Below, piece after piece: positions 2,833 to 25,000 of a DNA stretch of 30,162 bases. A model generated the notes under the pieces. The model was not told the origin of the DNA. It worked only from the letters and a program-made list of their open reading frames with translations, and ran no database searches. Numbering within the stretch: position 1 is the stretch's first letter; each line of letters starts with the position of its first letter. The position numbers and the translations under genes were made by a program. The stretch comes from Spirochaetales bacterium (GTDB taxonomy: Bacteria; Spirochaetota; Spirochaetia; Treponematales; UBA12059). The stretch lies in NCBI GenBank assembly GCA_016926955.1, contig JAFGNN010000055.1, positions 1 to 30,162 of the forward strand, read 5' to 3'.

Positions 2833-4092
2833 ATGGGCACCCTCTGGAAGATCGCGTTCCGCAACGTGCTCAGGCACAAGCGGCGCACGGCGATCACGGG
2901 CGTGGTCCTCATGTTCGGGATCGGCGTCTACATCATGTTCGGCTCGATGCTCGCCGGCATGGACCGCATGAGCATCGACTCGATGGTCGACTACTCGACG
3001 GCCTCGGCGAAGGTCACGAGCCCAGGCTACCTCGAGACCATGTCCGGCACGCCGCTCGACTTCGGGCTCGAGAATCCGGCCGCCATCGAGCGGGCGGCGC
3101 TGGCCGCGGGCGCGAGCGGCACCACGCGGCGCACAGCCTTCGTGGGGCAGCTCTCCAACTACGTCGACGCCCTGCCGGTCATGGCTTTCGCCGTCGATCC
3201 GGCGACGGACGGGACGGTGTTCGCGCTGGAGCGCGCGGTCGACGCGGGCGAATGGTTCCCGGGCCGCGAGGCGAACGAGATCGTGCTGGGCAGGAAGCTG
3301 GCGGCCGAGCTCGGGCTTTCGGTCGGCGACTGGGTGGTGCTTTCCGGCCGCACCCGGCCCGGCGCCGAGAACGCCGACGAGTTCGTCGTGGTCGCCACCG
3401 TGGACGCCGCGGACCCGCAGGTATCGAACTCGGGCGCCTACGTGAGCTACGGGGCCGCCGAGGAATTCCTCGAGCTCGACGGGCTCGTCACCGAGCTCGA
3501 CCTGGCCCTGCCGCGCGCGGCCACGCTCGACCGCGCGCTCGACGAGGCGGACGCGCTGGCCGCCGCCCTGCGCGCGGAGTTCCCGGAGCTCTCGACGCGC
3601 TCGGTCAAGGACCAGGCCGCCGACTACCTGGCCATGCGGAACATGAAGAGCAAGTTCAGCTACGTGATGATGCTCGTGGTGCTGCTGATCGGCGGCGTCG
3701 GCATCGTCAACACCATATTGATGGCGGTCTACGCCCGCGTGAAGGAGATCGGCGTGCTTCGCGCCTACGGCATGCTGGGCCGTGACGTGAAGTCGCTCTT
3801 CACCATCGAGGGCGTCATCGTCGGCGCCATCGGCTCGCTGGCCGGCGCCCTGTTCGGCCTCGCGCTCACCTGGTACATGGTGGAGTACGGGATACCGGTC
3901 GGCGTCTTCTTCGCGGACGGCGGCCTCGACATGGGCAACCTGCCCCTGACGGGCAGCATGTACGGCGAATGGAAGCCGCTCGACATCGTCGTCGGCTTCG
4001 TCTTCGGCGTGGTCGTCTCGTTCATCGCGGCGCGGATTCCCGCGCGGCGCGCGGCCCGGCTCGAAGTGACCGACGCCCTGCGCTTCGTGTAA
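2833..4092 (+). CDS. FtsX-family ABC permease, LolC/LolE/MacB-like (419 aa).
   Basis: The N-terminus MGTLWKIAFRNVLRHKRRTAITGVVLMFGIGVYI is a typical FtsX/MacB TM1. A ~230-aa periplasmic domain is followed by a C-terminal three-TM FtsX domain. RBS AAGGAG lies at 2821-2826. Confidence 0.85.
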   Translation: MGTLWKIAFRNVLRHKRRTAITGVVLMFGIGVYIMFGSMLAGMDRMSIDSMVDYSTASAKVTSPGYLETMSGTPLDFGLENPAAIERAALAAGASGTTRRTAFVGQLSNYVDALPVMAFAVDPATDGTVFALERAVDAGEWFPGREANEIVLGRKLAAELGLSVGDWVVLSGRTRPGAENADEFVVVATVDAADPQVSNSGAYVSYGAAEEFLELDGLVTELDLALPRAATLDRALDEADALAAALRAEFPELSTRSVKDQAADYLAMRNMKSKFSYVMMLVVLLIGGVGIVNTILMAVYARVKEIGVLRAYGMLGRDVKSLFTIEGVIVGAIGSLAGALFGLALTWYMVEYGIPVGVFFADGGLDMGNLPLTGSMYGEWKPLDIVVGFVFGVVVSFIAARIPARRAARLEVTDALRFV

Positions 4093-4103
4093 GGGAGGAT
4101 AAG

Positions 4104-5339
4104 GTGCGCATACTCGACATGGCCTTGCGGAACCTGGGGCGGAACCACCGGCGCACGGCGCTGGCGGCGAGCTCCGTGTTCTTTGCCATCATGCTGATAC
4201 TCATCATGAACGGCCTCGTGAACGGCTTCATGGAATCGATGGTCCGCAACTACACCAAGAACGACTCGGGCCACGTGCATATCGCGACCGAGGGCTACCG
4301 CGCCCGCGAGCGCTTCATGCCCGTCGACGAGAACGTCCCGGACTCGACCGCGCTGGCCGCGGCCATCAAGGACCTGGACGGCCTCGAGGGCCGCGTGGAG
4401 ATCGTGGCGGAGCGCATCCGCTTCGGCACCCTGCTCTCTTCCGGACCCGCCACCAAGGCCGCCTTCGGCATGGCCGGCGACCCGGAGCTCGAGACCGAGC
4501 TGGTCATGCTCGACCGGAGCATCGTCGAGGGCCGCTACCTCACGGGCTCGGGCGACGCGGTGCTCGGCGCCGGGCTCGCGGCGGACCTCGGCCTCACGGT
4601 GGGCGACACGCTGAAGGTGGTGACCCAGCGCGCGGACTACGGGATCGGCTTCAAGCGCTTCACCATCGCGGGCATCTTCAAGACCGGCGTCAACACGCTC
4701 GACGGCAACCTCTTCCAGATCGGCCTCGACGACGCGCGCGAGCTCCTGGCCATCGAGGGCGCGCAGCAGCTGCTCGTCATGCTCGACCGTTCGGACTTCG
4801 CGCCGGAGGCGGCGCGGATCATCGAGGCGGCCCTGCCCGGGCTCGGCTTTTCGGGCCTGACGGCGCGACCCTGGCAGCAGGATTCGTTCGGCGGCTTCAT
4901 CACGCTCGTCTCGGGAGTGTACTGGTTCATGTACCTGATCTTCGCCGCGCTCGGCGCCTTCATCATCACCAACGTCATGATGATGGTCGTGCTCGAGCGG
5001 AAGCGCGAGATCGGCATCATGAAGTCGATGGGCATGCCGCGCCTCGAGCTGCTCGGCCTCTTCCTGCTCGAGGGCAGCCTCATCGGGCTCGCGGGCTCCT
5101 TCCTCGGCTCGGCCGTCGGCACCCTGCTCAACTGGGTCTTCTCGAAGATCGGCTTCGACATGACCGACGCGCTGGCCGGCTTCTCGTGGCCGCTCGACAA
5201 CATCATCTACCCGCGGGTCGACCTGCTGCAGGCCCTGCTTTTCGTGGGCCTCGGCACGCTCGTCGCCGCGGCCATGTCGTACCTGCCCTCGCGGAGCGCC
5301 TCGCGCATGGATCCCGTCGAGGCCATCCGCTCGGTGTAG
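4104..5339 (+). CDS. Second FtsX-family ABC permease, LolC/LolE-like (411 aa).
   Basis: A GTG start at 4104 is preceded by GGAGG (4094-4098); an alternative ATG lies at 4119. It has the same architecture as the upstream permease, with C-terminal motif ...ASRMDPVEAIRSV. Confidence 0.85.
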   Translation: MRILDMALRNLGRNHRRTALAASSVFFAIMLILIMNGLVNGFMESMVRNYTKNDSGHVHIATEGYRARERFMPVDENVPDSTALAAAIKDLDGLEGRVEIVAERIRFGTLLSSGPATKAAFGMAGDPELETELVMLDRSIVEGRYLTGSGDAVLGAGLAADLGLTVGDTLKVVTQRADYGIGFKRFTIAGIFKTGVNTLDGNLFQIGLDDARELLAIEGAQQLLVMLDRSDFAPEAARIIEAALPGLGFSGLTARPWQQDSFGGFITLVSGVYWFMYLIFAALGAFIITNVMMMVVLERKREIGIMKSMGMPRLELLGLFLLEGSLIGLAGSFLGSAVGTLLNWVFSKIGFDMTDALAGFSWPLDNIIYPRVDLLQALLFVGLGTLVAAAMSYLPSRSASRMDPVEAIRSV

Positions 5340-5352
5340 TCGACGATACCGA

Positions 5353-5474
5353 GAAACCACGGAGGCACGGAGACACGGAGGGAGGAGGGAGAAAACGGTC
5401 AAGAGCTTCCGATCACTCTTGAGCGAGAATTCCATCCTCCCTCTTTTCTCCCGATCTCCTTGCCTCCGTGGTTC
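5353..5474. repeat. Imperfect palindromic intergenic element of ~120 nt. The left terminus is GAAACCACGGAGGCACGGAG and the right terminus CCTCCGTGGTTC. It has a purine-rich arm (GGAGGGAGGAGGGAGAAAA), a pyrimidine-rich arm (TCCTCCCTCTTTTCTCCC) and a central TCAAGAG/CTCTTGA. It lies inside the operon between permease 2 and the LolA_like gene.
   Basis: The inverted repeats were read directly. The same terminal 19-mer recurs at 24364-24380 and 24398-24416, and inverted at 24522-24539. Confidence 0.65.
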
Positions 5475-5493
5475 TATTCTTCAAGGAGTTCAT

Positions 5494-6234
5494 ATGAAGC
5501 GTATCATTTTTACGGTGTTGGCGGCGGTGGCGGGGTTCGCGGCGTTCGCGCAAGCGGCGCCGACCGCGGCGGAAATATTGGCGAAGGTGGACGAGAACGA
5601 GAATTTCTCGTCCATCGAGTACGAGGGCCGCATGGAGCTCACGCTCGGCGGCAAGACCCGCGTCAAGACGATGAAGGCCGTGGCCGTCGGCGCGGACAAG
5701 GCGTACATCGAGTTCACCAACCCCGAGGACCGGGGCGTGCGCTACCTCAAGCTCGGCGACGAGCTCTGGATGTACTTCCCGAAGGAGGACGATACGGTCA
5801 AGATCTCCGGCCACCTGCTCCGCGAGGGCATGATGGGCTCGGACGTGTCGTACGAGGAAGCGCTCGAATCCGACAGCCTCGCCGATATTTACGACGCGGT
5901 CGTCAAGGGCCGCGAGGACTACGAGGGCAGGCCCGTCTGGGTGCTCGAACTCACGGCGAAGAAGAGCTCGGCCAGCTACGCGCGGCAGATCCTCCGCGTC
6001 GACGCCGAGCGCTTCGTGACGCTCTCGGCGGACCTGTACGCCAAGAGCGGCAAGTTGCTGAAGGAATCGCGCACCCTCGAAGTCAGGCTCATCGGATTGC
6101 GCTGGTACCCGGTCAAGGTCGAGCTCTCCGACAAGCTCCGCAAGGATTCCCGCACGAGCTTCGAGCTCGTGTCCATCAAGCTGGACGTCGCCGTGGATCC
6201 GAAGCGCTTCACGCTCTCGGAGCTGGGGAAATGA
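5494..6234 (+). CDS. LolA_like (PF17131-type) outer-membrane lipoprotein-sorting protein with a signal peptide (246 aa).
   Basis: It has the signal peptide MKRIIFTVLAAVAGFAAFAQA. The family-typical segment KLGDELWMYFPKEDDTVKISGHLLREGMMGSDVSYEEA matches the conserved LW.YLP...R(I/V)...MGSDF.YED core. RBS AAGGAG is at 5481-5486, and the ATG at 5494 lies inside the longer track ORF. Confidence 0.75.
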   Translation: MKRIIFTVLAAVAGFAAFAQAAPTAAEILAKVDENENFSSIEYEGRMELTLGGKTRVKTMKAVAVGADKAYIEFTNPEDRGVRYLKLGDELWMYFPKEDDTVKISGHLLREGMMGSDVSYEEALESDSLADIYDAVVKGREDYEGRPVWVLELTAKKSSASYARQILRVDAERFVTLSADLYAKSGKLLKESRTLEVRLIGLRWYPVKVELSDKLRKDSRTSFELVSIKLDVAVDPKRFTLSELGK

Positions 6235-7367: not shown

Positions 7368-7448
7368 TCCGGCGCTGAAGGGCGGATGGCGCCGGCCTTG
7401 CCGCCACCCGCCTCGCGCCGGGCCGGGAAAGCGCGCTCTTCCCACCGC

Positions 7449-12200: not shown

Positions 12201-12353
12201 GGCCCCGCCGCGCTCAAGGCCGCCTGGGAGCGCTTCGCCGACTACGTCGCCGGCGAGACCCTGGCCGTCGCCGTGGAATGGAAGGAAGCAAGCGGCATGA
12301 CGGAGATCGAAGCCGGCGAAATCGCCTGGCTCGCCGCCGTCGAAAAGGCCTGA
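9201..12353 (+). CDS. ileS: Isoleucine--tRNA ligase, type 2 (eukaryote-like bacterial form), 1050 aa.
   Basis: It has the HIGH motif PHFGHFVPG, the KMSKS motif KKMSKSLRNY, an editing domain and a type-2 C-terminal extension. The GTG start at 9201 has GGAGG at 9189-9193. Confidence 0.95.
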   Translation: MFKPVDPKVNFPQMEEALVEFWERERIFKRSIEQREGKDEFVFYDGPPFATGLPHFGHFVPGTIKDIVPRYKAMKGYKVERRFGWDCHGLPVEYEMEKELGISGKRQIEDFGVAKFNESCRSIVLRYTKEWRRIMTRAGRWVDFDNDYKTMDPDYMESIWWVVKALWDKGLVYEGHYILPYCPRCSTVLSNHELQLGGYRDVHDPAITVRFKVKAAPPKFPLADLADGHTYVLAWTTTPWTLPSNLGLTVGPDIDYVLVKDGTERYLLAESRLGAYYKETDTLDFAWKGKGSELSMLEYEPLFDFFADAREQGAFRVRTGDFVTTEDGTGVVHTAPGFGEDDYRALKDTGIPVIAPLDGECQFTDEVPDWKGLFVKDADKPIMEKLKVEGKLVRREQILHAYPHCWRCGSPLIYRAISSWFVKIDPVKPMMLDANSRVRWTPEHIRDGRFGKWLENARDWAISRNRYWGNPLPIWKCDSCAETVCVGSRDELEKRSGTRPDDLHKHFVDEITWKCSCGGTMKRIPEVLDCWFESGSMPYAQVHYPFENKKHFEEHFPSDFICEGLDQTRGWFYTLTILAAALFDRPAFKACVVNGLVLASDGKKMSKSLRNYTDPMVVMNEFGADALRLFLMRSAVTRADDLCYSDEGVREVLKGIILPVWNAYSFFVTYANIDRAEPGEAPTDAANPLDRWILSTCEAMVQATGAALEAYDMQAAIEPIVDYIDALNNWYIRRSRRRFWRSENDGDKAEAYATLYRVLRRLAETAAPIMPFVSEEIWRNLRRPDEAESVHLRDYPEYDARYRDEALEAKMAIARKAVAMGRALRAQYELKARQPLARAILVTRDAKERAVLREMEELLRDELNVKELAFRENEEDLVSYSAKANFRTLGKELGKDMKEAAALIEKLDHRAAATLVEGGRLELTVAGRPVELDLSKVEIRRQEKEGLHVLNEGTLTVGLDVEITQELLDEGYARDLVRGLQNLRKEAGLEVSDRVRIGLFGPAALKAAWERFADYVAGETLAVAVEWKEASGMTEIEAGEIAWLAAVEKA

Positions 12354-12364
12354 GAAGCAGGAAT

Positions 12365-12475
12365 CCAACGCCGAGACGCCGAGAACACCGAGACAAGAAT
12401 GAAAAAGGGGAAGGGTCATGACGACCCTTCCTTTTTTCTTCGTCCCGATCTCGGCGTCTCGGCGTCTCGGCGTTT
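12365..12475. repeat. Extended ~110-nt palindrome. A 28-bp inverted repeat (AACGCCGAGACGCCGAGA... / ...TCTCGGCGTCTCGGCGTT, with the CCGAGAC unit iterated) flanks the ileS terminator hairpin.
   Basis: The left arm is 12365-12393 and the right arm 12448-12475. The first 18 nt of the arms are perfectly complementary. Confidence 0.55.
12403..12440 (+). terminator. Rho-independent terminator of ileS. An A-tract precedes a GGGGAAGGGTC/GACCCTTCC stem with a TTTTTTCTT tail, so it is potentially bidirectional.
   Basis: It has a perfect 9-10 bp GC-rich stem, a 5-nt loop and a U-tract. Confidence 0.8.
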
Positions 12476-24289: not shown

Positions 24290-24363
24290 GTGTCGCTCCA
24301 ATCTAGCAGAAGCCCCCGAAGGTGTCAAACCGCCGCCCGGCCTGCCCCACCCCATGAAAAGGC

Positions 24364-24539
24364 GAACCACGGAGGCACGGCAGAGCCTTCCCAATGAGAA
24401 CCACGGAGGCACGGAGCTGGGGAGAAAAGAGGGAGCAAGAAAAGGTCGAGGTAAAAGGTGGGAAGGTCGACTCCTTCCCCACAACTTTCCTCCCTCCTCC
24501 CTCCTCTCTCTTCCCTCTTCCCTCCGTGCCTCCGTGGTC
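24364..24539. repeat. Second member of the GAACCACGGAGGCACGGAG-terminated palindromic element family. Terminal 19-mers sit at 24398-24416 and inverted at 24522-24539, with an extra direct partial copy at 24364-24380. It has a central GGAAGGTCGAC/TCCTTCC and a 38-nt pure polypyrimidine tract (24488-24525). It lies in the ptsI upstream region.
   Basis: This was read directly. The arms are purine-rich and pyrimidine-rich as in the element at 5353-5474. Confidence 0.65.
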
Positions 24540-24547
24540 TTCTTTGA

Positions 24548-25000
24548 CTAGTTGTCCCTTGCGATGTCGGTGGCGTAGAGCTCTTCGAAGCGGGCGCGGT
24601 GGCGCGACTCCTCGGCGGCGAGCCGCTCGAAGACCTCCGCGAGCTCGCCCGAACCCGCGGCCTCCGCGAAGGCCTTGTAGAGGCGCTCCGAGCGGTCCTC
24701 CTTGCGGATGCCCGCGCGGAGCACGTCCTGGTAGTCCGGATCCGGGCCGAGCTCCCTGTCCTCGACCAGATCGGAGAAATCGGCGCGGGATGCGAAGGCG
24801 GCGTTCCAGGTCGGCGCGCCTTTGACCTTGACCGCCTCGAGGGCGCGCGCGTGGCCCTCCTCCATGGCGGCGAGCTCGGCGAGCATGCCCTGCTGCGCGG
24901 CGAAATCCGAACGGCCGAGCAGGTCCTGGTAGAAGCGGATGGCCTCGCGCTCGCGGCCTATGGCTAAGTCGATCGCCTCGGAGAAGCTCCGGAAATCCAT
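24548..25000 (-). CDS. Rubrerythrin-like/ferritin-like diiron four-helix-bundle protein (150 aa), last gene of the complex-I-like operon.
   Basis: It has two E-x-x-H motifs (AAMEEGHARALE; AAEESRHRARFEEL) plus upstream Glu residues. Its ATG at 25000 is 2 nt after the fusion gene's stop. Confidence 0.65.
   Translation of the reverse strand: MDFRSFSEAIDLAIGREREAIRFYQDLLGRSDFAAQQGMLAELAAMEEGHARALEAVKVKGAPTWNAAFASRADFSDLVEDRELGPDPDYQDVLRAGIRKEDRSERLYKAFAEAAGSGELAEVFERLAAEESRHRARFEELYATDIARDN

Follow-up and report, generated by a model that had tools for sequence, protein, structure and literature searches.

Intervening sequences (IVSs) interrupt the 23S rRNA of Coxiella, Leptospira, Salmonella and other bacteria, some of them without an open reading frame (ORF), and the early mRNA of phage T7 carries intercistronic RNase III sites, long imperfect hairpins whose cleavage yields separately stable, translatable mRNAs. 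Here we analyse element A, a 119-nt imperfect palindrome at positions 5355-5473 of a 30,162-nt stretch of DNA from a Spirochaetales bacterium (assembly GCA_016926955.1, contig JAFGNN010000055.1, positions 1 to 30,162; hereafter the window), which lies between two genes of a transporter operon and belongs to a family of hairpins with tandem-repeat arms dispersed across bacterial phyla. Among the described systems, the 23S IVS of Coxiella, described as selfish, is 428 nt long and has a terminal stem of 28 bp, an AG-rich stretch, an S23p ORF and 2-3 tandem copies of the heptamer GACAGAT whose number varies among strains; it is removed by RNase III, which cleaves where the first repeat begins, and the origin of 23S rRNA intervening sequences has been left open (PMC4990558).

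The family shares with the 23S IVSs a hairpin-bounded form, a long terminal stem and tandem heptamers in the arm, as well as a location inside transcripts, a presumed selfish nature and the presence or absence of a small ORF (S23p/PF05635 in the IVSs). Element A itself has two arms of 37 nt, 81% complementary and separated by 45 nt according to a repeat finder, with three CACGGAG heptamers at 5358, 5366 and 5374 (period 8) and no ORF, and the length of double-stranded RNA (dsRNA) in its stem (>20 bp) is compatible with RNase III. It lies, however, in an mRNA gap between protein genes and not in helix 9, 25 or 45 of 23S rRNA, and the family differs further in its arms of period 8 with AACC/GGTT ends and in a cargo gene that encodes GxxExxY rather than S23p; excision is known for the IVSs only. 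Each T7 site is an evolved signal that has an internal loop and exists in one copy, whereas the family is a dispersed repeat for which cleavage is only predicted.

Element A is an insertion between permease 2 and LolA_like. The operon around it is conserved and encodes an ABC-ATPase, permease 1, permease 2 (FtsX + MacB_PCD, called at 4104-5339), a LolA_like protein (PF17131, E 6e-44; TP_0789-like; start at 5494) and a protein of ~375 aa, and the best homologues of the LolA_like protein come from metagenome-assembled genomes (MAGs) of Spirochaetales or Spirochaetia. In the more distant of the orthologous operons (L124-L127) the permease 2-LolA_like site is empty (Table 1) and the flanking proteins keep their lengths, which means that no arms are hidden there and that the tight junction is the older state. 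The initial annotation, which had placed a palindrome of about 120 nt between the permease 2 stop codon (5339) and the LolA_like start (5494) and had called it inserted inside the operon, was thus right about size, position and origin. In near relatives the same site holds other hairpins: the window and L123 share CACGGAG ends around different cores, L118/L119 have CGCCGAG/CTCGGCG arms, and L122 has a composite of CGCAGAG and CGCGGAG units. These site-A hairpins of near relatives fold strongly (minimum free energy, MFE, of -81.5, -107.2 and -107.3 kcal/mol), and a Shine-Dalgarno sequence (SD) directly 3' of the hairpin is kept in all of them. The L118 element has its arms, though not its core, in common with another copy in the window (element C, below). 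Either all 4-6 repeats at one orthologous site change in concert, or the element is replaced at a hot spot.

The long stable hairpin that had been predicted for the transcript was confirmed by folding. RNA of the + strand spacer (5340-5493) has an MFE of -72.5 kcal/mol against -48.0 +/- 4.2 for 200 dinucleotide shuffles, none of which folded as well (z -5.8), and the - strand RNA of the element folds equally well (-72.0, z -4.7); the G+C of the window is 67.7%. Since the element is a palindrome, both strands read the purine arm first. Its outer ends are AACCACGG...CCGTGGTT. In this lineage the 7-mers of the left arm are followed by a GGGAG-type purine tract; the right arm complements the left and ends CTCCGTGGTT, the core is unconserved even in the 95% relative L123, and the tail 3' of the element reads CUAUUCUUC. 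An AAGGAG ribosome-binding site does follow just downstream, as had been noted, at a spacing of 8-9 nt instead of the proposed 7. A scan found neither a promoter nor a + strand terminator around element A, and predicted no promoter of their own for LolA_like and the next gene.

Table 1. Coordinates of the window features, lengths of the permease 2-LolA_like spacer in orthologous operons, and loci with PF05635 cassettes.
Feature	Position or locus	Strand	Details
MacB/FtsX permease 2 stop codon	5337-5339	+	15 nt before AACC, 12 nt before first paired base
Element A, ORF-less hairpin cassette AACC...GGTT	5355-5473		Basis: inverted repeat, fold, empty orthologous sites
Left (purine) arm of A	5355-5391	+	AAC + CACGGAG-G-CACGGAG-A-CACGGAG, then GGAGGAGGGAG
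Variable core of A	5392-5436		Small inner hairpin 5399-5422
Right (pyrimidine) arm of A	5437-5473	+	CTCCCTCTTTTCTCCCGATCTCCTTGCCTCCGTGGTT
SD AAGGAG and ATG of LolA_like/TP_0789-like	5483-5488 and 5494-5496	+	Both outside stem
Element C, CGCCGAG arm repeat, A-like architecture	12367-12474		Starts 13 nt after ileS stop (12351-12353)
Sigma-70-like promoter TTGACA-17-TAGATT with TG, between B and ptsI	24300-24328	-	Consensus scan only
Solo half-site AACCACGGAGGCACGGCA adjoining element B	24365-24382	+	
Element B, CACGGAG-type copy	24399-24539		8 nt after stop 24548-24550 (- strand) of rubrerythrin-family gene
Permease 2-LolA_like spacer	Window		154 nt
Permease 2-LolA_like spacer	L123		159 nt; LolA_like identity 95%
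Permease 2-LolA_like spacer	L118-L121		193 nt; LolA_like identity 90%
Permease 2-LolA_like spacer	L122		280 nt; LolA_like identity 90%
Permease 2-LolA_like spacer	L124/L125		1 nt; LolA_like identity 63%
Permease 2-LolA_like spacer	L126/L127		26 nt; LolA_like identity 59%
PF05635 cassette	L138		
PF05635 cassette	L156		Between 3HCDH and ECH genes
PF05635 cassette	L163/L165		
PF05635 cassette	L168		Between fumarase gene and FabH-like (ACP_syn_III) gene

Three full copies (A, B and C) and one half-site lie within these 30 kb, where 0.02 matches to the terminal 18-mer AACCACGGAGGCACGGAG with up to 3 mismatches are expected and 6 occur. The copies have in common AACC at the start and GGTT at the finish of the arms, with the unit CACGGAG (CGCCGAG in the ileS copy), and each starts 8-15 nt beyond the upstream stop codon. 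The initial annotation had inferred a dispersed repeat family from a related copy upstream of ptsI; that copy, element B with its adjoining half-site, is real and the family claim holds, but the inventory missed a third full copy, element C, which a tandem 7-mer scan found behind ileS (identified by Pfam). Element B lies 109 nt from the start of ptsI (24289, - strand), a gene recognised by its N-terminus MKELRGIPASPGIA and a GGKTSHSAILAR motif. The stretch 24340-24560, which spans B and the half-site, folds with an MFE of -99.6 on the + strand and -117.1 on the - strand, and a scan showed terminator-like mini-stems at both ends of B. The candidate promoter between B and ptsI suggests that B sits at the 3' end of the upstream transcript. 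In the half-site region (24340-24382), AACCACGGAGGCACGGCA pairs on the - strand with a degenerate C-rich partner, GCCTGCCCCACCCCATG, and the region looks like a decayed element beside copy B. Element C has the arms AACGCCGAG-A-CGCCGAG-AA-CACCGAG ... CTCGGCG-T-CTCGGCG-T-CTCGGCGTT and an MFE of -76.0 kcal/mol (z -9.5). Downstream of it on the + strand stands TTTTCTTCTATTCTTT, with a U-rich tail, UUUUCUUCUAUUCUUU, given which C may act as the ileS terminator.

The family extends far beyond this genome. A search of 596 Gb of a species-representative genome collection for the exact 18-mer returned, among the matches listed, more than 116 contigs (a lower bound) from ~17 phyla. They include Planctomycetota, Verrucomicrobiota, Lentisphaerota, Kiritimatiellia, Bacteroidota, Chloroflexota, Acidobacteriota, Gemmatimonadota and Myxococcota, further Geobacter, Spirochaetota, Alphaproteobacteria, Nitrospirota, Armatimonadota, Cyanobacteriota, Hydrogenedentes and Desantisbacteria, and also isolate or closed genomes (Sorangium So ce131, Kouleothrix, Aquisphaera, Maioricimonas). 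About 17 exact matches are expected by chance in a search of this size, so the contig count alone is weak proof and it is the paired architecture that carries the case: 78 of the 18-mer matches have an inverted partner 50-320 nt away. We define a repeat-armed hairpin cassette as AACC followed by at least two tandem 7-mers with a period of 8-10 and by an inverted copy ending in GGTT, the purine arm coming first on both strands; A, B and C are all cassettes of this kind. Inverted array pairs in the loci are purine-first in 127 of 146 cases and pyrimidine-first in 19. The cores are unrelated between genomes, and beyond GGTT the flanks lack conservation among family members.

A unit-agnostic census of ~1.05 Mb of fetched DNA yielded 100 hairpins with tandem-repeat arms built from 30 different units (CACGGAG, CACGAAG, CACAGAG, CGCCGAG, CGCAGAG, CGCGGAT, CACAGAT, CGCAAAG, ACAGGAT and TGCAAAA among them), with lengths of 46-691 nt and a median of 132. 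The arms of a hairpin match each other whatever the unit: in 37 hairpins with ~27 units other than CACGGAG, own arms were 87% complementary against 30% for shuffled partners, a set preselected at >=19/24 matches in which only the contrast with the shuffle is informative. This diversity also bears on the SD-like and anti-SD-like composition (GGAGG/CCTCC) that had been singled out as notable. It is the trait of one variant, and we dropped the idea because sister units such as CGCCGAG, CGCAAAG and CACAGAT lack GGAGG. A sponge for CsrA/RsmE, suggested by the fit of CACGGAGG to CANGGANG, was abandoned as well, because the motifs are base-paired and GGA is missing from sister variants.

Family members stand in co-directional (44), divergent (19) and convergent (10) gene contexts without orientation preference, as judged from crude gene calls. 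An earlier set of gene-context statistics was unusable because the crude ORF caller had put 36 of the 78 elements, including the window's own, inside ORFs. Phages or plasmids as vectors were considered and rejected: the 18-mer occurs in just 17 IMG/VR contigs, and annotated phage and plasmid records gave no match in a search where a low-complexity filter may hide some. Half-elements also occur alone or as direct tandem arrays. Left-arm arrays without a right arm were seen with periods of 84 and 88 nt in Bacteroidales (L020 5471-5700, period 84; L035 53-230, period 88), as four copies at a 331-nt period on a closed Chloroflexia chromosome (L105 277-1290), and in L028 (6197-6430); hairpin formation cannot account for such direct arrays.

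Some relatives carry genes. In a member of the Verrucomicrobiota (L061) and one of the Lentisphaeria (L043), the same ends, with CACGGAG arms, flank genes for GxxExxY proteins of 123-128 aa (TIGR04256, E 4e-40 and 6e-42; Pfam PDDEXK_3, PF13366), a family whose function is given as unknown and which is recorded to have moved between divisions several times (PMC3424549). Homologues within the same arms lie between an ABC-2 membrane gene and its ATPase (L145, 72% identity) and between an ATPase and an ABC-2 permease (L153, 77% identity). In both, the arms fit exactly between the neighbour's stop and the next start, the stop TAA being in L145 part of TAACC, and the purine arm supplies the SD of the cargo gene. 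All four cassettes (L061, L043, L145 and L153) sit between the stop of one ABC-transporter gene and the start of another. An alphaproteobacterium (L075) has a 41%-identical GxxExxY gene within CGCAAAG arms. The GxxExxY cluster is the only recurrent group of small ORFs among the loci; against PADLOC it gave weak Cas4-like matches only, and no solved structure was matched by sequence.

A second kind of cargo belongs to PF05635 (23S_rRNA_IVP), the family of Avd, an accessory protein of diversity-generating retroelements (DGRs; PMC10053308). Genes of this Avd-like type outside rRNA are flanked at gene junctions by inverted period-7 arrays of TCAGCAC/TCAGCAT or TCGGCAT/TCGGCGT units. Arm type tracks cargo type in 5 GxxExxY and 4 PF05635 cases, and the elements of the window have period-8 arms of the GxxExxY type without an ORF.

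Element A is therefore an inserted, multi-copy repeat with cross-phylum and cargo-bearing relatives, matched arms and a hairpin that is stable on either strand. We think it rather probable that A belongs, as a copy without a gene, to a widespread family of selfish, IVS-like hairpin cassettes, and that it likely acts as an RNase III site or is a tolerated structure. A selfish cassette of this kind would land in short gaps between genes, its full-size members carrying the small GxxExxY gene (PD-(D/E)XK nuclease fold), and a sister class of period 7 an Avd-like '23S rRNA IVS protein'. In this spirochaete lineage a copy entered the once-tight permease 2/LolA_like junction, where it is probably co-transcribed with the operon, as no promoter or + strand terminator lies around it. 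The transcript is predicted to form an imperfect dsRNA stem of ~45 bp that seals the insert while the SD 3' of it remains accessible. As in the 23S IVSs, RNase III probably cuts this stem and splits the polycistronic mRNA, and the insert may be tolerated at the price of uncoupling the translation and stability of LolA_like from the permeases. By the same analogy, a processing site, one of the roles that the initial annotation had proposed, would be the most plausible consequence at the RNA level, and LolA_like probably owes its expression to a transcript that is processed or bridged by structure, and not to the tight coupling of related genomes. For the uniformity of the arms and for movement, structure-specific action of the cargo nuclease in trans is our leading guess. 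We infer that element A is not an evolved regulator.

Several results weigh against this selfish-cassette reading. The window holds no mobilising enzyme and no footprint of known transposition chemistry, and no consistent direct repeat that could be a target-site duplication flanks A, B, C and ~60 other copies; L145 is flanked by TAA on both sides. None of the fetched loci has rRNA motifs and no copy inside rRNA was found, so that the link to IVSs rests on architecture and cargo family. Among the 44 co-directional contexts (crude gene calls) the sense strand was the more stable in 19 and the antisense strand in 24 (p 0.47), and G.T and A.C mismatches are equally frequent when arms are compared; selection at the RNA level is thus not demonstrated, and a purely DNA-level palindrome fits equally well. 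Simple parasite decay does not explain ends that are letter-perfect over 18 nt across phyla around unrelated cores, and the differing arm repeats at one orthologous site could reflect concerted evolution or repeated replacement.

That the hairpin is an adaptive intercistronic regulator, setting the ratio of inner-membrane transporter to periplasmic and outer-membrane components through a 3'-exonuclease barrier that stabilises the upstream mRNA or through attenuation of read-through or translation, seems to us rather unlikely. All near relatives do keep a strong hairpin at site A despite sequence change, with the SD just downstream, and the copies of the window all begin 8-15 nt past a stop codon, positions from which repetitive extragenic palindromes (REPs) of E. 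coli are reported to influence the gene that precedes them. At 59-63% identity, orthologous operons nevertheless work with a 1-nt or 26-nt junction, stability shows no strand bias, and cores are unconserved even at 95% relatedness. With members of the same family after ileS, before ptsI and in unrelated contexts of every orientation, and with arms and core that vary among relatives at 90-95%, the regulator of this operon that the initial annotation had envisaged is not supported. Decidedly unlikely is an intrinsic, possibly bidirectional terminator or attenuator carried on a palindromic repeat, for which one could cite UUUUCUUCUAUUCUUU right after ileS and copy C, CUAUUCUUC after copy A and the mini-stems that the scan placed at both ends of copy B. 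For copy A, for which an attenuator role had been proposed, the scan shows no terminator-like site on the + strand, and its tail has no U run as an intrinsic terminator would. In other genomes LolA_like and the gene behind it are translationally adjacent, and no promoter of their own is predicted for them here, so full termination would silence them. The T-richer side of copy B, moreover, faces away from the direction of the flanking genes, and outside GGTT the family has no conserved flank for a terminator tail.

A role at the DNA level, in which the 7-mers bind a protein or a cruciform acts in recombination, replication pausing or instability while the RNA fold is a by-product, we also consider unlikely, yet it is a live rival, with the regulator and the terminator less likely readings. 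Strand symmetry speaks for it (equal folding of both strands, as many G.T as A.C mismatches, no bias towards the sense strand), as do the solo halves and direct arrays of Bacteroidales and Chloroflexia (L020, L035, L105), where no hairpin can form, and the nuclease fold of the cargo protein. On the other hand, neighbouring sites spaced 8 nt apart do not face the same side of the B-DNA helix, the analysis yielded no candidate for a protein that binds them, and the relative described in the literature undergoes processing at the RNA level (PMC4990558). Nearly all elements occupy gaps that are transcribed, and the cargo gene takes its SD from the purine arm, both of which point to a life inside transcripts. 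A chance palindrome, or a low-complexity purine/pyrimidine tract without a family, is practically untenable: the ~17 exact 18-mers expected in 596 Gb mean that single matches such as that in Actinomadura (L110) may be chance, but none of 200 shuffles folds as well, the window has 6 matches where 0.02 are expected, and 78 matches with an inverted partner at 50-320 nt, together with the shared cargo genes, refute it through their paired architecture.

Other described repeats resemble the family in part. REPs measure 20-40 bp and have a GTAG or CGTC head (PMC3733652). They and the bacterial interspersed mosaic elements (BIMEs; REPINs) built from them are, like the family, short extragenic palindromes in many copies, often directly behind stop codons; they can make mRNA more stable or direct its processing and are the non-autonomous partners of a small nuclease-type gene. 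REPs are, however, specific to a species or genus and are mobilised by RAYT transposases (HUH/Y1), whereas the family spans 46-691 nt with ends identical across phyla, tandem-repeat arms and a PD-(D/E)XK gene, and element A, at 119 nt and without a GTAG/CGTC head, is not a REP. Miniature inverted-repeat transposable elements (MITEs; Correia, ERIC, RUP, Nezha and others) share with the family terminal inverted repeats without coding capacity, which A has too, an intergenic and co-transcribed location, presence/absence polymorphism and larger relatives that look autonomous. A classical MITE was rejected, since there is no target-site duplication and no recognised transposase relative (DDE in the MITEs). 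The ends of A are shared with GxxExxY cassettes, GxxExxY is not a known transposase, and its closest matches are the weak Cas4-like ones. Unlike in MITEs, only the ends are conserved, the cores are unrelated within a genus, and the arms are internally repetitive and change in concert. Reading of the element ends showed no attC features.

The TAACTGA heptamer repeats of Beggiatoaceae, Cyanobacteria and Bacteroidetes form an intergenic 7-mer array across phyla, with 2-6 copies near start codons, suspected horizontal spread and no known mechanism (PMC4679880). Like the cyanobacterial short tandemly repeated repetitive (STRR) sequences, they resemble the family in being intergenic 7-mers in distant phyla, but they are direct repeats (one indirect set among 170 in the Guaymas genome) without hairpin partner or cargo, whereas the arrays of the family are inverted pairs. 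An Rfam 15 scan of the whole window at gathering thresholds gave 0 matches, and E-value mode returned only models of miRNA precursors, the best at 29 bits against cut-offs of 80-85. In the literature searched, no paper gave this sequence or dealt with such cassettes, the sole analogues retrieved being the Coxiella IVS and the TAACTGA repeats, and as far as we have searched the family is apparently undescribed.

Locally, element A is an ordinary-looking selfish hairpin; the surprises lie in the family, with its cross-phylum ends, its concerted arms and its tie to two orphan families and the rRNA IVSs. More tentatively, the dispersed hairpins, the GxxExxY genes and the non-ribosomal Avd-like genes may form one cross-phylum class of mobile transcript intervening sequences that enter gene junctions, neutralise themselves through an RNase III-cleavable stem and have their arms renewed by a dedicated mechanism, the classical 23S rRNA IVSs being the subset that landed in rRNA. 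We regard this unification as possible, though we would sooner doubt than assert it. Renewal of the arms could then be the work of the cargo nuclease on DNA hairpins or cruciforms, or result from self-primed copying of the excised hairpin RNA with the help of an Avd-like protein. If true, it would place two very large families of unknown function in a genomic setting and assign them a role open to test, namely GxxExxY/PDDEXK_3 and S23p/'four helix bundle', for each of which homologue searches found at least ~8,000 members, would explain the origin of the 23S rRNA intervening sequences, and would add a kind of mobile element with 18-nt ends identical across ~17 phyla, beyond known transposition chemistry.

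Some further observations concern individual loci. A second presence/absence polymorphism involves L124: its site A is empty, but a CGCGGAG/CACGGAG hairpin stands at 4870-5040, after the gene for the ~375-aa protein, where the window has just an 81-nt spacer (7368-7448). Junctions inside ABC-transporter operons host three independent cassettes or hairpins (L145, L061/L153 and window 2833-6234), a recurrence that may reflect the mere commonness of such operons. Hybrid stems with a CACAGAG left arm and a CTCCGTG right arm occur in L059, L136, L142, L088 and L111, so that every arm unit has an A.C mismatch when read on one strand and a G.U pair on the opposite one. A paired element (L103 2884-2959) lies on a 123-kb contig binned as Klebsiella pneumoniae, a bin that may be wrong, and the L110 match in Actinomadura madurae (3321) is unpaired.

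The cassettes also leave traces in annotation and assembly. In L153 (1450-1500 and 1889-1930) the gene caller translated both arms into the termini of the neighbours, and the ORF lists of many loci contain recurrent arm-derived peptides, LRASVV / SVPPWF (from CTCCGTGCCTCCGTGGTT) and HGGTEA (from CACGGAGGCACGGAGG); the arms have likely given rise to spurious N- and C-terminal extensions of database proteins. Most GxxExxY and PF05635 homologues are found on contigs of <2 kb, and in L165 (region 1122-1220) a run of N falls exactly at the right arm, so the cassettes seem to break short-read assemblies.

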